NCBI GenBank assembly: GCA_963718875.1
Contig: OY970378.1
Span: forward strand, 477,373 to 541,372
Reading direction: 5' to 3'
DNA length: 64,000 bases
Source: Candidatus Parcubacteria bacterium
GTDB lineage: Bacteria > Patescibacteriota > Saccharimonadia > UBA4664 > JBIOIQ01
Numbering within the stretch: position 1 is the first letter of the stretch; every line of letters starts with the position of its first letter. Positions 9,424 to 57,842 of the stretch are shown in pieces. The notes under the pieces were generated by a model. The model made no database searches. It was not told the origin of the DNA and was given only the letters and a program-made list of their open reading frames with translations. Made by a program: the position numbers and the translations under genes.

Positions 9424-9530
9424 TTTCTAAGTGCGCTCTACAGGATCACTCCTGCGGCTATGCACTCCGCGTACCTAGTGTACGTCTCGCTTGCGTTGCT
9501 CGTCGTTCTTTGCAGTGCATCACTTAGAAA
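9424..9530. repeat. Imperfect palindromic intergenic repeat, family copy R1
   Basis: Outer arms TTTCTAAGTG / CACTTAGAAA; core GCACTCCGCGTAC..GTACGTCTCGCTTGCGTTGCTCG resembles the copies at 10201, 51167 and 55492. Confidence 0.7.
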
Positions 9531-10335: not shown

Positions 10336-10412
10336 GGGGACTAGGTGTCTGGGCTATGACACGTCTTGCATTATCGGTGCAAGGAAGGAGGTTCAAATCC
10401 TCAAGTCTCCAC
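10336..10412 (+). tRNA. tRNA-like gene: Ala-type acceptor stem, canonical D and T loops, aberrant anticodon arm
   Basis: Acceptor GGGGACT/AGTCTCC with G3:U70 and discriminator A; D stem GTGT/ACAC with a GG-containing loop; T loop GGTTCAAATCC; anticodon arm is a 7-bp helix with loop TTATCGG (central triplet ATC) and only a 2-nt variable region; CCA not encoded. Confidence 0.5.
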
Positions 10413-16861: not shown

Positions 16862-16953
16862 GTTAAGGCTCAAATATTGGATTGCTACTTGAAATATTTA
16901 TAATCAACACATATAATGGTGGTACCGTCAATCAAGCCTTAGGAGGCCGACGA

Positions 16954-17499
16954 ATGCTCAAGAGACCCCTTATCACGCGTCCGATTGAGGATGTTGTCGC
17001 GGACATCCTCGATCTCGATCTCGGACCGATCAGGTTCACGCTCGTTCGTCGAGGCTGGACCGGAGGTCTGGCTGACCGCTTCATCACGGAGTACCGCCGC
17101 CTTCTTGAGCTGATGGTGCGGTTTCCAGATGATGTCATCGTCCCTTCGGAGGACGTGGATACCGTCTGGCACACCCACATCCTCGACACGGCCAGGTACC
17201 GCGATGACTGCATGCGGATCTTCGGCTTCTTCCTCGACCATTTCCCGTATTTGGGCACGCGTGGATCTGACGACGAGGATGAACTTCGTCGGCTGTACAC
17301 CCGATCGCGGGAGCTGTATGAGCAGACGTTCGGCCATCGGACGGTGTCTACGGCATCGGCCTGCTCCGCGTTCGGAGCTGGGAATGGAGATGTACCCGTT
17401 CCAGCTCTGGTTGGAGCAGCCACAGTGGCGTATTGTGGCGGGGGTGGCGGAAAGCCGTCGTCTGCTCCTAGCTACCACCAAGGTGGTAGCTGTGGCTGA
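16954..17499 (+). CDS. G+C-rich foreign-looking gene: glycine-rich-domain (GRDP/DUF1399-like) protein
   Basis: AGGAGG 7 nt before ATG 16954; DTVWHTHILDT motif and Gly-rich tail; G/C-biased third positions; strong hairpin GTTGATGGTGGCGG..CCGCCACCATCAAC downstream. Confidence 0.6.
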   Translation: MLKRPLITRPIEDVVADILDLDLGPIRFTLVRRGWTGGLADRFITEYRRLLELMVRFPDDVIVPSEDVDTVWHTHILDTARYRDDCMRIFGFFLDHFPYLGTRGSDDEDELRRLYTRSRELYEQTFGHRTVSTASACSAFGAGNGDVPVPALVGAATVAYCGGGGGKPSSAPSYHQGGSCG

Positions 17500-17628
17500 G
17501 GGTCTTGAAGTAAGGTTGATGGTGGCGGTTACGGCCGCCACCATCAACTTGATACAAATGTTTATGAAGTTAGCTCGTTCGCACCATAACCGGTAATCTG
17601 GTACAATCTACTCTAGAAACGAGGGATT

Positions 17629-33394: not shown

Positions 33395-33426
33395 CAAGAT
33401 ACAAGATACAAGATACAAGATACAAA
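33395..33426 (+). repeat. Tandem heptad array (CAAGATA)x4 abutting the mreB start codon
   Basis: CAAGATACAAGATACAAGATACAAGATACAAAG ends 3 nt before ATG 33430; no SD present. Confidence 0.9.
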
Positions 33427-50963: not shown

Positions 50964-50992
50964 TTGACTTTAATTACTCAATGTGGTATATT
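50964..50992 (+). promoter_or_regulatory. Sigma70-type promoter with extended -10
   Basis: TTGACT 50964-50969, 17-nt spacer ending in TGG, TATATT 50987-50992. Confidence 0.55.
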
Positions 50993-51113: not shown

Positions 51114-51166
51114 ATTAAAGACGGCGACCTTTGACAGTCGAATAATCTAAGATCATTAGAGAAACG

Positions 51167-51282
51167 GCTTGCAACTTTGGCTTATTTCGTCGTTGCAGCT
51201 TGCGCTCCGCACTCACCGTACCATTAAGTACGGTTCGCTTGCGGTGCTCGCTGCGCCTAGAACTAAGTCCAGATTTGCAAGC
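51167..51282. repeat. Imperfect palindromic intergenic repeat, family copy R4
   Basis: Arms GCTTGCAA / TTGCAAGC; core TGCGCTCCGCACTC..CGCTTGCGGTGCTCG shared with R5. Confidence 0.7.
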
Positions 51283-51336: not shown

Positions 51337-51403
51337 TGCAAGCAGTTATTGTTTCGTTAACTAGGGGAGACCTATGATGTTAGCGAAACGTTATCTGCTT
51401 GCA
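51337..51403 (+). promoter_or_regulatory. 25-nt inverted repeat upstream of the G+C-rich island
   Basis: TGCAAGCAGTTATTGTTTCGTTAAC (51337-51361) vs reverse complement of GTTAGCGAAACGTTATCTGCTTGCA (51379-51403); four mismatches. Confidence 0.5.
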
Positions 51404-51512
51404 TGAAACTGTGCAAGCGAGGATTCGACACTTAGTCGAATTCAGTTGCTCTACCGAACATACAGAAACCACAGACCAGGGTGAGAACTCTGGCAGAGCA
51501 AAGGAAAAGACC

Positions 51513-52448
51513 ATGTCCGACCAGACCGGAGGACCCGGTACCACCGCCCCACCCCGCCGACCCACGCTCCAGGAGCTCGCCGACCAGGCGAGAGCCACGA
51601 TCGAGGAGCAGGCTCGACAGGCGAATGACCTCCAGGGTCAGCGCTCCGCCATCAACGCGATCAGCGGTCGAGTGGCGCAGCACGACGACGCCATCGCTGA
51701 CCTCCGGGACGCTTCGGCCCAGCAGGCCGACGCCGTGGACCGCCTCGGCCAGCGCACGCTGGTGGTCGAGGGACGCACGGACTCGTTGGAGGACTTGGCT
51801 CGCGCCAACGCCGCCGGCGTGGCCGGGCTGACCGCCAACATGGCTGACCTGACCACCAACGTCAACACGCTGGCCACCACGGTGGGCCAGCACGACACCC
51901 GTCTCGACGCCGTCGAGGACGCCGTGACGCCGGCCGCTATGCGGACGGTCGTCACCGAGGTGGTCGAGGAGCGCATGCGCGCTGTTCGGTTCAACTGGGT
52001 GGCCTTCGCCGTGGTGGCGATCGTGGGCTTCATCATCGACCTGTTGGTGTTCTCCGAGATGGGGAGCTTCAACAGCGCCGAGGCGCCGAAGCTCTCCAAG
52101 CACCTCACGGACGTCATGCACACGCAGAACTTCCTGGCCGTCATGCTCGTTGTCCTGGCCCTCGCCATACTCATCGCCCTCATCGTTCCGGTGGTCGGGC
52201 AGGACGAGCGTCCCAGGCAGGACCGCCAGCCCAGGCCGCCTCGGCAGCCCGGATCCGGCGGTGGTTTCATGGCCGGTCTTCGCAACGTTTGGAGGAGGGG
52301 TCGCGGTACGCCCGCTGCCACTGCGCCCATCCCGGCCAACTCCACGCCGGTGGCGACGACGAACCCGTCGGCCTCGTCCAACGCGCCCACTCAGGTGCTG
52401 CCGGCGGTGCCGACGTCCGGTCCGACGCCCTCATCGGGCAACCCGTAG
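51513..52448 (+). CDS. High-G+C island gene A: coiled-coil protein with two TM helices and a Pro-rich tail
   Basis: AAGGAAAAG before ATG 51513; third codon positions almost all G/C; Ala/Asp/Leu periodic N-terminal ~160 aa, TM helices FNWVAFAVVAIVGFIIDLLVF and FLAVMLVVLALAILIALIVPVV, then RPRQDRQPRPPRQPGSGGG.. Confidence 0.7.
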   Translation: MSDQTGGPGTTAPPRRPTLQELADQARATIEEQARQANDLQGQRSAINAISGRVAQHDDAIADLRDASAQQADAVDRLGQRTLVVEGRTDSLEDLARANAAGVAGLTANMADLTTNVNTLATTVGQHDTRLDAVEDAVTPAAMRTVVTEVVEERMRAVRFNWVAFAVVAIVGFIIDLLVFSEMGSFNSAEAPKLSKHLTDVMHTQNFLAVMLVVLALAILIALIVPVVGQDERPRQDRQPRPPRQPGSGGGFMAGLRNVWRRGRGTPAATAPIPANSTPVATTNPSASSNAPTQVLPAVPTSGPTPSSGNP

Positions 52449-52517
52449 TCCACGCGGTTCTTCAAGTGGATTGTCCCAATTCAAATACCTCCTAGCGTCA
52501 AGCAAAGAGGGAACAAC

Positions 52518-52547
52518 CCTCTGTCCGCCCTTCGGGGCGGACAGAGG
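52518..52547 (+). terminator. Hairpin terminator after island gene A
   Basis: CCTCTGTCCGCCC-TTCG-GGGCGGACAGAGG. Confidence 0.7.
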
Positions 52548-52647
52548 AGCAACTTTTACTTCCATGGATAGTAGTCCGCGTGAGAAGCAATTCTTACTCG
52601 GTTTCTGTTCATGGTGCAATCGGCACCCAAACGATAAGGAGGGTGCC

Positions 52648-53826
52648 ATGAGCACCAGAAGAGGTCCTGTTCTGATCATCGTGTGTCTGCTGATGGCAGC
52701 GGGGGCTTTGCTGTTCAAGTACGGCAACGGCCCAACGCCGGCAGTGGCACAGACGCCGCCCACGGTGCCCGTTTCGGACGTCTGCAAGGACGTCCCGGGC
52801 AACGTGCCGAGGTGGTTTGCCAAGGAGACCGACGGCAACAAGTTCGGTCCGGCGGCTCCGTTTGACCTTGGTCCCGCCAGGAAGGCTCAGCACGAGGTCC
52901 TGTGCCTCGACCCGGCCAACCTGGTGATCACCCAGGAGACCATCGACGGGAAGTTCAGCAGTCCGGCAAACCGGGCTGCCCGGACTCGCGTTCTCGTTGC
53001 CAACCCCACTGCGCGGTTGGCAGCGGTGGCCTATGTGCAGGCAGAGTTGGCCAAGGCCAAGGAGGTTCGGCTGGAGGTCCACACGGGACCCTACCAGACC
53101 TTCTACATGACCACCGACGGCGACGTGCCGGAGGTGTTCCAGTCTGCAGGGAGCTTCACCGAGGCACGGCACGTTCTCGTGTACGACTTCGGTAACGGTC
53201 GCACGGTCAACTTCGTACTGGAGTGCAACTTCCAGGGGGAGTTCCCCGGGCCGGTCAAGAACGTGCCGGTGGCAACGCCGGGCACTGTGCCGGCGCTGGT
53301 TCAGCCGGGGCCCACCAGCCCGCCGCCGACGACGTGCCAGTCGACCAACACCTGTTCGACCGTGACCAGCCCACCGCCCGTGTGCTGCGGACCGCCCCCG
53401 ACGACGTGTCAGGTCAACTGCGGTCCGCCCCCGACGACGTGTCAGGTCAACTGCGGTCCGCCGCCGACGACGTGTCAGGTCAACTGCGGTCCGCCGCCGA
53501 CGACGTGTCAGGTCAACTGCGGTCCGCCGCCGACCGTTTGCACACACAAGTGCGCGGGAGAGGACGTTGCGGTCAGTCCGAGTCTGGATCCTGTCGTTTC
53601 GGGACTGGCTGCGGGCAATGCCGCACCCACTGCGGTGGCAACACCGGTCGTGACGGCGCCTCCGGCGCCGCCTCCGCCCGTGACCACAGCCACGCCACCC
53701 GTGACGGCTCTGCCGTCCTCCGATGGCGTGGCAGCTCCACCGCCTGTAGTGGCTCCACCGTACGTGGCGCCCGATGCGGGCACTCCGTCCAACCCGACGA
53801 CGGGAACCATTCCGCCGCCGCCGTAG
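52648..53826 (+). CDS. High-G+C island gene B: secreted or anchored protein with CGPPPTTCQVN tandem repeats and a Pro/Ala/Val-rich tail
   Basis: AAGGAGGG RBS 5 nt before ATG 52648; N-terminal signal/anchor MSTRRGPVLIIVCLLMAAGALLF; ~220-aa globular region; 11-aa Cys/Pro repeats; ORF track start 52150 overlaps gene A and the terminator. Confidence 0.7.
   Translation: MSTRRGPVLIIVCLLMAAGALLFKYGNGPTPAVAQTPPTVPVSDVCKDVPGNVPRWFAKETDGNKFGPAAPFDLGPARKAQHEVLCLDPANLVITQETIDGKFSSPANRAARTRVLVANPTARLAAVAYVQAELAKAKEVRLEVHTGPYQTFYMTTDGDVPEVFQSAGSFTEARHVLVYDFGNGRTVNFVLECNFQGEFPGPVKNVPVATPGTVPALVQPGPTSPPPTTCQSTNTCSTVTSPPPVCCGPPPTTCQVNCGPPPTTCQVNCGPPPTTCQVNCGPPPTTCQVNCGPPPTVCTHKCAGEDVAVSPSLDPVVSGLAAGNAAPTAVATPVVTAPPAPPPPVTTATPPVTALPSSDGVAAPPPVVAPPYVAPDAGTPSNPTTGTIPPPP
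53386..53535 (+). repeat. 33-bp tandem repeat, about 4.5 copies, in frame within gene B
   Basis: TGCGGTCCGCC(C/G)CCGACGACGTGTCAGGTCAAC repeated head to tail with one or two substitutions. Confidence 0.95.
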
Positions 53827-54037
53827 GACACCACTTCTGCCCATTCGGGCAGGGGTCTACCCCAGGGTCTGGGGTGGTGCGCAAGCGCCACCCCGCCCTG
53901 TGGGTATACATATTCTTAATGATTTTGGATTATTCGATTGCTCCAAGGGTTAGTGCCCTTTAACATTTAGCGTCCAACTTAACTTGTAGATCATATTAAA
54001 TTCATTTTAACGTTCATTATTTAAAAGGAGAGCACAT

Positions 54038-55318
54038 ATGAAAGCTCAAATTCTCAAGCGAATTGCTGCTAGTGTTGCAGTGCTCGCTATCGGCCTGGTT
54101 CCTTTTGTTGCTGGCGCTGCTAGCAACTGGGGTCCTGCCCGTCCTGCTCTAACCTACAATGGCAACAACACTCCAGGTGCTGACCATGTAGTGTTTAACT
54201 CATTTACCAATAACCCTAACTATGGTGATGAGCGTGCGTTTTTTGATGGTAAGTCTGCCACTAACACCACAACTGGTGGTTACCAAGACACCATTAACGT
54301 AGATACTAATGGCGAATATCTGTTACGCATTTACGTTCACAACAATGCCGATCCTACGCTTAACGCTGGTGGTACCGGTATTGCTCGTAACACTAAAGTT
54401 CGGGTAGCTTTGCCGACCAATACAGATCGTAGCCTACGGGCCAACGCCTTTATTTCGGCTGACAATGCTAATCCAGGTACGGTGTTTGACTCAGTCGATT
54501 TCCAGACTACTGGAGCTTCAAACTTTGGTTTAAGCTATGTGCCTGGCTCGGCTAAAATCTACACTAATGTTACCCCCGCTGGCCGGGCTGTTAACGATAG
54601 TATCGTTGGCGCCGGTGCCCCTATTGGTTACGAAACCAACGATGGCAATATGCCTGGATGTTTCCAGTTTACTGCCTTCGTGACCTTGAAAGTTAGGGTT
54701 AACGCCCCTTTGTTAACGCTCAAAAAACAAGTTAAGTTAAACGACAGTGACGCTTGGACCTCAAGCGTTAACGCTAAACCCGGTGATTCAGTTTCATGGT
54801 TGATAACATTTAACAACACTGGAACTGCTCAAGTTGACAACATGATTGTCCGTGACCAATTACCTCCTCATGTAACGGTGGTCCCTGGATCAGTTATGTG
54901 GTTCGACACCCGCCGCCCTAATGGTCAACAGATGCCAGATGGTGCGCTGTTTACCACGGGAGGTATAAATGTCGGTAGCTACGCTGCTGGTGGTGGCGGT
55001 TACATCCGTTTCCGTACCACGTTGAACAATGACTTTACTGCTTGCAGTACAACCATTAACAACAACAGCTTTGTAAAAGCTACTAACATGCCTGAGATTT
55101 CAGCTTCAGCTGGAGTGGTAGTAACAAAGGTTTGTACAACTACAACTACTGTTACTCCTCCTCCTGTAGTGACCCCTCCTCCGGTAACCCCTCCCGCTCT
55201 TCCTGCTACTGGTGCCGAAGGTGCCTTAGCTGGAATATTCGGTACAGCCGGTATCGGTTACAGTCTGCGCTCATACTTGCGCAGCAAACGTGGCCTTATC
55301 GATTCTTTGAAACGATAA
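54038..55318 (+). CDS. LPXTG-anchored surface protein with a DUF11-like repeat domain
   Basis: Signal peptide, beta-rich domains, Thr/Pro linker, sorting signal LPATG plus hydrophobic stretch plus RSKRG tail. Confidence 0.85.
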   Translation: MKAQILKRIAASVAVLAIGLVPFVAGAASNWGPARPALTYNGNNTPGADHVVFNSFTNNPNYGDERAFFDGKSATNTTTGGYQDTINVDTNGEYLLRIYVHNNADPTLNAGGTGIARNTKVRVALPTNTDRSLRANAFISADNANPGTVFDSVDFQTTGASNFGLSYVPGSAKIYTNVTPAGRAVNDSIVGAGAPIGYETNDGNMPGCFQFTAFVTLKVRVNAPLLTLKKQVKLNDSDAWTSSVNAKPGDSVSWLITFNNTGTAQVDNMIVRDQLPPHVTVVPGSVMWFDTRRPNGQQMPDGALFTTGGINVGSYAAGGGGYIRFRTTLNNDFTACSTTINNNSFVKATNMPEISASAGVVVTKVCTTTTTVTPPPVVTPPPVTPPALPATGAEGALAGIFGTAGIGYSLRSYLRSKRGLIDSLKR

Positions 55319-55491: not shown

Positions 55492-55623
55492 GAACTTACG
55501 CACGTGGCACATTTCGGCGCAAAGACTGCGCTCCGCACTCGTCCCCGGATCAAGTCCGGGGCAGGCTAGCGCTTGTTGCGGTGCTCGTCTTTGCATCCGA
55601 ACTGCACTCACGTGCGTAAGTTC
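55492..55623. repeat. Imperfect palindromic intergenic repeat, family copy R5
   Basis: Perfect 15-bp outer arms GAACTTACGCACGTG / CACGTGCGTAAGTTC; core TGCGCTCCGCACTC..GCGGTGCTCG; apical hairpin CCCCGGAT-CAA-GTCCGGGG. Confidence 0.8.
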
Positions 55624-57708: not shown

Positions 57709-57842
57709 TCAAGATACAAGATACAAGATGCAAGATGCAAGCAAACCACAAGTAGCAAGTCTCAAACTGCAATTGTTTGGATCTTGGGGATTTGAAGCCA
57801 GGGCGTTGTTTGTGTCTTGTGTTTTGTTTCTTGTTTCTTGCA
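57709..57842 (+). repeat. CAAG-periodic heptad arrays in inverted orientation (ftsE-ftsX spacer)
   Basis: CAAGATACAAGATACAAGATGCAAGATGCAAG (57709-57740) and CTTGTGTTTTGTTTCTTGTTTCTTG (about 57808-57840); the arms form an imperfect long hairpin. Confidence 0.8.

Follow-up and report, generated by a model that had tools for sequence, protein, structure and literature searches.

A tandem array of cysteine/proline modules in a predicted exported protein family of Saccharibacteria

In the hinge of human immunoglobulin G3 (IgG3), repeated EPKSCDTPPPCPRCP exon units build a ladder of interchain disulfides, and the number of units varies between alleles. C-x-x-x-C is the copper-binding motif of Sco proteins, and CGEQ is the thioester motif of alpha2-macroglobulin and C3, thioester domains being found in Gram-positive adhesins as well. 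Here, we analysed a 64,000-nucleotide stretch of a Saccharimonadia genome deposited as Candidatus Parcubacteria bacterium (contig OY970378.1, positions 477,373 to 541,372 of the forward strand; hereafter the window), in which gene B (52648..53826, + strand) carries a tandem array of Cys/Pro-rich units, referred to below as the ladder. Comparison of gene B with its relatives leads us to favour, with moderate confidence, the reading that this ladder is a young amplification of a module of the family and that it would form an exported, disulfide-looped and polyproline-spaced stiff extension. In Saccharibacteria, which live attached to other bacteria, a role is known for very few envelope proteins.

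The tandem array and the protein that carries it

Tandem Repeats Finder, run over the whole window, detected at 53385-53534 a repeat of period 33 with 4.5 copies, 98% matches, no indels and a score of 279, the runner-up array reaching a score of 82. Translation unit by unit gave four copies of CGPPPTTCQVN, encoded by 33 bp each (53386-53418, 53419-53451, 53452-53484 and 53485-53517, + strand), followed by a fifth, divergent unit CGPPPTVCTHK (53518-53550), the whole array extending over 53386..53550. The original prediction, which had placed about 4.5 near-identical in-frame 33-bp repeats at 53386-53535, proved correct in both coordinates and description. Degenerate versions had also been reported ahead of the array, and these are indeed seen: older degenerate Cys/Pro units (PPPTTCQSTNTCSTVTSPPPVC) occupy 53320..53385 (+ strand), directly 5' of the array, with a unit at 53352-53384 that is 64% identical to the reference unit (protein ...SPPPTTCQSTNTCSTVTSPPPVC) and further Cys/Pro sequence. 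The array was read in the frame of the open reading frame (ORF) 52150-53826 (+ strand), and this frame is backed by homology, namely an E value of 4.6e-46 to the relative P0002 and a family of 209 clusters. An ORF on the opposite strand (52609-53844) was dismissed as the usual antisense artefact of GC-rich DNA. The most plausible start of gene B is the ATG at 52648, preceded by the AAGGAGG sequence resembling a ribosome-binding site, which gives a protein of 392 residues identical to the database protein P0001.

The four full units vary at two sites only, GGA/GGT (Gly) and CCC/CCG (Pro), and both changes are synonymous. These sites are graded along the array (A/C in unit 1, T/C in unit 2, T/G in units 3 to 5), a pattern that stepwise duplication would give. 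In the orthologous region of the closest relative, locus L005 (41% identity), the array is decayed, with a period of 24 and 67% matches. The high DNA identity between units and the decay of the orthologous region both argue for the recent expansion that had been proposed, and the window array is, judging from these comparisons, the youngest amplification of the family-typical module. Since the unit length of 33 bp is divisible by 3 and the array falls within coding sequence, a change in copy number would alter protein length only, and a phase-variable ON/OFF contingency repeat was rejected for the same reason. A cluster look-up for copy-number variants returned the gene B protein as a singleton, as were all ten ladder-bearing proteins. 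The locus was otherwise assembled only in a Logan contig of 4,221 bp (run ERR12037361), which breaks off after 14 residues of the array; such a break is expected of a short-read assembler and is uninformative on variation.

The gene B protein is composed of an N-terminal anchor or signal (residues 1-34), a globular domain (about 38-206), a linker (207-246), the Cys/Pro ladder (247-301) and a Pro-rich tail (302-392). Counted from the end of the globular domain, the tail has 196 residues with 27% Pro and 14 Cys. The protein is predicted to be exported, in line with the original prediction of a secreted protein, on the grounds of its basic N-terminus, a 16-residue hydrophobic helix (helix 8-25) and a possible AVA-Q cleavage site, and of a PKD domain fused in front of the family domain in one relative (P0056), which fits an extracellular location. 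Membership among bacterial lipoproteins was rejected, the lipobox L-[AS]-[GA]-C being absent from gene B; its sole N-terminal Cys lies in LIIVC and is not conserved in P0002-P0004. The C-terminus (...NPTTGTIPPPP) has neither an LPXTG sorting signal nor another wall anchor, and the globular domain adjoins the N-terminal anchor, so that an LPXTG sortase-anchored adhesin with a stalk was likewise rejected. The stalk suggested at first is only partly supported, as the ladder does not hold the domain outward.

Searches with the whole protein matched no family in Pfam, NCBIfam or PHROGs. With the tail alone, the best Pfam matches were Ig_RIMBP2 (E 0.28) and Extensin_2 (E 2.9; 8.5 bits for a cut-off of 20.8), neither of them significant, and the ladder alone gave a best, non-significant E value of 0.84 against the PDB sequences. 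The original prediction had named a match of the repeat to a characterised domain family as evidence against it, and no such family was matched in Pfam or among PDB sequences.

The B family and its Cys/Pro module

A word-indexed database search with gene B returned three relatives only. The family was defined by the profiles A2/A4, of which A2 was built from the N-terminal domains of four sequences, the window protein included, and used in an exhaustive HMMER search. This gave 209 clusters at E<=1e-3, of which 104 remained at E<=1e-10; most are of 300-370 residues. Against the profile, the window protein reaches 285 bits (E 2.2e-80), but it is itself one of the four sequences behind it; independent support for its membership comes from the match to P0002. 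Furthermore, it has the domain with the invariant residues, the combination of an N-terminal anchor or signal with an even-Cys Pro-rich tail, and the A-B-C gene order. In species-representative genomes, all seven matches (7/7) are metagenome-assembled genomes of Candidatus Saccharibacteria/Saccharimonadia. No relative of the family domain was found in the viral contigs of IMG/VR, and a metagenome scan added just two more loci. The B family appears to be a previously undescribed and unannotated family of exported proteins confined to Saccharibacteria.

The globular domain (52759..53265, + strand; residues 38-206) is an alpha/beta domain of about 165 residues, predicted by AlphaFold2 (AF2) with a predicted local distance difference test (pLDDT) of 94.1 and a predicted template modelling score (pTM) of 0.89. 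The predicted fold has no fold or sequence relative in the PDB. Four columns are invariant in 96 sequences, C46, G67, C193 and Q196, and the domain ends in a K-L-x-C-G-F-Q-P motif, CGFQ being typical of the family and CNFQ found in the window protein. In gene B, the domain cysteines and the C-x-x-Q motif are encoded on the + strand at 52783-52785 (residue 46), 52903-52905 (residue 86) and 53224-53235 (residues 193-196). The number of Cys in the domain is always odd (3 in 40/48 sequences and 5 in 8/48); C46 and C193 are fixed, and the third Cys shifts between 86-89 and 117/124.

The family tails are Pro-rich and 100-230 residues long. For their comparison, they were cut after the C-x-[FYW]-Q motif closing the globular domain and kept if at least 60 residues long, which gave 104 tails. 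Their Cys counts are even in 91 cases, zero in 12 and odd in 1. Odd counts in the domain combined with even or zero counts in the tail leave one invariant Cys without an intrachain partner, for which a free thiol, an interchain bond and a thioester are candidate states. The module statistics exclude the window protein and take their expectation from shuffled tails. On this basis, C-x-x-x-C was observed 54 times, compared to 13.2 +/- 3.4 in the shuffled tails, a four-fold enrichment, and the spacing of 3 occurs 46 times within sequential Cys pairs (1-2, 3-4 and so on) and 8 times between pairs. Asn or Asp usually precedes the second Cys, and Pro predominates at positions +2 to +4 after the motif. 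Both the Cys pairing and the Asn/Asp preference hold among sequences less than 50% identical. Such even counts and nearest-neighbour spacing are expected if each module closes its own disulfide.

The C-x-x-x-C module is present in 28/104 members, with 0 to 8 copies per member. Separate tandem amplifications were found in P0014 (CVENCTPPP x3), in P0073/P0074 (CEGECIIIPPPPPPP x2-3) and in P0002, P0069, P0082 and P0100, the module having expanded independently in several members. MdbA-like thiol-disulfide oxidoreductase and VKOR families are reported to be enriched in bacteria of the candidate phyla radiation (CPR) (PMC6744442), which makes extracellular oxidation plausible. The disulfide stapling envisaged in the original prediction is backed by this enrichment and by the even-Cys rule of the tails, and can be considered probable.

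A proposed ladder and its rivals

The array was most likely born by replication slippage or unequal exchange, and in its module a Pro-rich spacer would come after a C-x-x-[N/D]-C pair. The gene B protein would be exported and probably kept tethered by its N-terminal helix, placing the globular domain at the membrane surface, with the ladder and then the Pro-rich tail of about 90 residues further out. The ladder cysteines, two per module, would be oxidised extracellularly, an MdbA/VKOR-type system being the presumed catalyst, and local disulfides between nearest-neighbour Cys could then close a series of small loops with polyproline-II spacers in between. The outcome would be a stiff, protease-resistant extension, whose length may change in steps of 11 residues by slippage. 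Disulfide formation, the pairing partners, stiffness and any role in reach or spacing are the parts that we infer from sequence.

Several points weigh against this scenario. Only 28/104 members carry any C-x-x-x-C and 12 have no tail Cys at all, so the core function does not depend on the module. Two-Cys modules that bind metal, or that pair between chains, would likewise give even counts. Oxidation of the cysteines is putative, and the search for MdbA/VKOR genes covered part of the window. Seen from the anchor, the ladder runs beyond the globular domain, a layout more in keeping with an extension than with a classical stalk. The AF2 model of the ladder places short strands on each CQVN, but confidence is low (pLDDT about 60).

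The very high identity of the units, the in-frame period and the strongly variable family tails would also be accounted for if the ladder were the latest expansion of a low-complexity linker, tolerated but unselected and devoid of a specific structure. We consider such a neutral slippage product unlikely, since the module has been recurrently kept and independently amplified, and since its Asn/Asp and strict Cys pairing are conserved at less than 50% identity. That both differences between units are synonymous points in the same direction, though two sites are few. Alternatively, two B chains could stand side by side, perhaps linked via the unpaired domain Cys, and the ladder would then be closed by interchain disulfides as in the IgG3 hinge, which its Cys-Pro units resemble. 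The odd Cys count of the domain, leaving one invariant Cys partnerless, and the position of C193 just about 10 residues before the tail are in keeping with such an arrangement. However, symmetric interchain pairing needs no even counts, yet evenness is near-absolute, and twelve members have no tail Cys; a hinge-like interchain ladder seems to us quite unlikely.

Two closely spaced Cys repeated many times are also reminiscent of a metal-binding array, in which each C-x-x-x-C, the spacing of the Sco copper motif, would act as a thiolate site for Cu or Zn in an extracellular metal buffer or sensor. This is very improbable: no His/Met ligands accompany the cysteines, whose conserved partners are Asn/Asp and Pro, the module count ranges from 0 to 8 with most members having none, and the location is oxidising and extracytoplasmic. 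Finally, the abrupt jump in GC from 0.45 to 0.67-0.72 around gene B and the difficulty of assembling repeats raise the question of an artefact, in which the GC-rich island or the copy number would stem from mis-assembly or from a chimera with a high-GC organism. Such an origin is hardly credible, given that the Logan contig from run ERR12037361, an independent short-read assembly, reproduces, at identical distances, the low-GC SDR gene, gene A and B up to residue 260, and that twelve further distinct loci from other samples show B with raised GC in low-GC Saccharibacteria contexts. A young amplification of a family module, probably closed into disulfide loops, is the explanation that we favour.

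Genomic setting of gene B and likeness to known systems

Gene B belongs to a cassette of three genes. Gene A (51513..52448, + strand; 311 residues) encodes a protein with an N-terminal coiled coil, two transmembrane helices and a disordered Pro/Ala-rich tail. It always precedes B, and its architecture is common to six loci at 20-37% identity, being found upstream of B in L003, L004, L005, L008 and L014 as well. Gene C (54038..55318, + strand; 426 residues), of ordinary GC, encodes a protein with a signal peptide, a DUF11-type repeat and, at its C-terminus, the sorting signal LPATG; the gene is usually downstream of B, and the A-B-C order also occurs in L003, L004, L008 and L014. The cassette is immediately followed, in the window as in L004 and L014, by prfB, ftsE, ftsX and the genes for a PcsB-like CHAP hydrolase, an S41 protease and CTP synthase. 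Taken with the distribution of the family, this synteny suggests that the window derives from a Saccharibacterium. A GC-rich hairpin read from the sequence between A and B (52518..52547, + strand) has a 12-bp stem followed by a T-rich stretch, and L005 has an analogous perfect 17-bp hairpin between the two genes (2388-2423); this structure may be an attenuator, a terminator or an mRNA-stabilising element. The Pam pilus operon of CPR bacteria, with Ig-like-fold pilins and PapD-like chaperones beside ATP synthase genes (bioRxiv 10.64898/2026.03.03.709456), is a different locus, as the A-B-C/prfB-ftsEX context does not match it.

Genes A and B form an island of about 2.5 kb (51400-53900) with sharp edges and the raised GC given above. 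The GC content is 0.69 for gene A and 0.67 for gene B, and at third codon positions (GC3) it reaches 0.875 and 0.784, respectively, whereas the 44 other long ORFs of the window have a GC3 of 0.419 +/- 0.050 with a maximum of 0.612; besides A and B, one ORF only exceeds 0.52. In all loci examined (13/13), the GC of B is above that of the rest of the contig, by +0.09 to +0.24, and its GC3 spans 0.43 to 0.79, so the excess is partly due to amino-acid composition and partly to a lineage-specific synonymous shift. An assembly chimera was rejected on the strength of the independent Logan contig and of the same arrangement in the twelve further loci, and codon bias from high expression in view of the ordinary GC3 of rpsB and tsf, which the window also contains. 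A phage or mobile origin is unsupported, with no IMG/VR relative and no significant PHROG match; reading of the island flanks revealed no target-site duplication. Recent transfer from a high-GC actinobacterial host is unsupported too, since the genome matches are all Saccharibacteria and the cassette occupies the same syntenic place in distant relatives; indeed, neither species-representative genomes nor the cluster search offered a homologue outside Saccharibacteria that could act as a high-GC donor. An invertible segment was set aside, no locus in the small sample being in the opposite orientation. A literature search on GC islands and Cys-rich surface proteins of Saccharibacteria found nothing specific. 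A second, milder GC-rich patch (16882-17596; GC 0.57, GC3 0.61) has overlapping ORFs on both strands, the + strand ORF matching weakly a glycine-rich domain family, and is probably caused by amino-acid composition.

The A-B pair is bracketed by an inverted repeat, identified by repeat finding and a pairing table. Its left arm (51135..51159, + strand) is extendable by CCTTTG at 51128-51133, and its right arm (53916..53940, + strand), 90 nt past the B stop, by CAAGGG at 53944-53949. The two arms are 2,757 nt apart, and their sequence is present at the two island ends only and nowhere else in the 64 kb. An ungapped pairing scan found homologous arm pairs in L005 (363-392/3666-3695), L003 (8493-8517/11355-11379) and L011 (8489-8511/11022-11044), so that an inverted repeat of 23-30 nt brackets A-B in the four loci of highest GC3; it is absent from loci with a weaker GC3 shift. 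The core AGATCATT is conserved. Elsewhere the arms co-vary: from the window to L005, A-T becomes G-C and U.G becomes A-U, and the inner 9 bp are almost wholly different between L003 and L011. The arms have 17 non-Watson-Crick positions; 13 of them read as G.U on the sense strand, and the remaining four comprise one A.C and three further mismatches. The duplex energies are 3-5 standard deviations below those of shuffles, the comparison of sense and antisense energies not being decisive. The inverted repeat could act at the DNA level, as an operator or a recombination site. Since the arms stay complementary between loci and the G.U bias lies on the sense strand, we favour instead a long-range RNA helix, in which the untranslated regions at both ends of the A-B transcript, 5' and 3', would pair into a stem for processing or stabilisation. 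A promoter-like site (TTGACT-17-TATATT with TG; 50964..50992, + strand), detected by a consensus scan only, lies upstream of the left arm and, if used, would place both arms on one transcript.

The core heptamer AGATCAT of the inverted repeat occurs once more at 53988-53994, within a promoter-like stretch immediately 5' of gene C. A protein that binds at all of these sites is conceivable, but three copies within 3 kb make for weak evidence. An intergenic element composed of GCGCTCCGCACTC, an inner hairpin and TTGCGGTGCTCG is found at 51202-51250 and 55528-55587 and, in a weaker form, at about 9440-9502; the stem of the inner hairpin differs in sequence between copies while its pairing is kept, and the element has no Rfam match. 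The copy at 55528-55587 is enclosed by a 17-nt perfect inverted repeat (55490-55506/55610-55626; CAGAACTTACGCACGTG / CACGTGCGTAAGTTCTG), which sits in a GC-richer spacer between gene C and prfB. Rfam searches gave nothing fitting at the gathering or E<=1 thresholds. The heptamer CAAGATA is repeated 4.4-4.6 times at two intergenic sites, 33395-33425 and 57710-57741, one of them between ftsE and ftsX, and a TTGTGTC x4.4 array stands at the start of the ftsX ORF (57810-57840). The sole tRNA found by ARAGORN in the 64 kb (10336-10412) is called as a tRNA-Asp whose anticodon is ATC where GTC would be usual, so that it is an unusual tRNA or else a miscall.

A bolder idea would unite these elements: gene B could be a host-contact protein of an epibiont that acts covalently or sets reach, with a C193-x-x-Q196 thioester or another reactive bond, the ladder as an expandable tether, and the A-B cassette, with its shifted GC3 and co-varying RNA helix, as a special genetic unit. 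We would give this idea a very slim chance.

Collectively, the data partly support the original interpretation. A tandem-repeat linker in an envelope protein is of a familiar kind; what stands out more is the family around it, together with the cassette and the island between paired flanks. The B family is a candidate lineage-specific exported family whose fold, predicted with confidence, has no counterpart among solved structures, and its modular, expandable Cys/Pro ladder offers unusually clean sequence evidence for extracellular disulfides. The conserved three-gene envelope cassette stands beside the cell-division genes ftsEX, and its compositional island with paired flanks is not accounted for by a chimera, a phage, a gift from the host or high expression. 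Each of these points is testable in cultivable Saccharibacteria-host systems.

Compared with known systems, the ladder is closest in appearance to the IgG3 hinge: both consist of in-frame tandem units of about 11-15 residues with Cys and Pro-Pro-Pro, and share polyproline stiffness and a disulfide ladder, both putative for gene B. The disulfides of the hinge, however, join the two chains of a dimer, whereas the even-Cys rule of gene B favours intrachain pairs; there is no sequence relationship, and gene B encodes a bacterial protein that is probably tethered to the membrane. Pro/Thr-rich linkers and extensin-like regions are similar extended spacers of exported proteins prone to repeat expansion, but they have no regularly paired Cys, and the Extensin_2 match is far below threshold. 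The twin CX3C/CX9C (CHCH) proteins share the C-x-x-x-C spacing with oxidised Cys (oxidation being presumed for gene B), yet their motifs lie on two antiparallel helices, unlike the ladder with its 6-residue Pro-run spacers and no predicted helix. As in thioester proteins, gene B has an invariant Cys and Gln at C-x-x-Q spacing (C193, Q196) and an unpaired Cys; on the other hand, its motif has no Glu and its predicted fold does not match that of a thioester domain, so that this likeness may serve as a lead only. Tandem-repeat surface proteins of Gram-positive bacteria, for example those of the Rib/alpha-C type, resemble gene B in being envelope proteins with near-identical in-frame DNA repeats, whose copy number is expected to be changeable by recombination or slippage, but their repeats are folded domains of about 80 residues in LPXTG-anchored proteins, whereas gene B carries an 11-residue linker module and no sorting signal.

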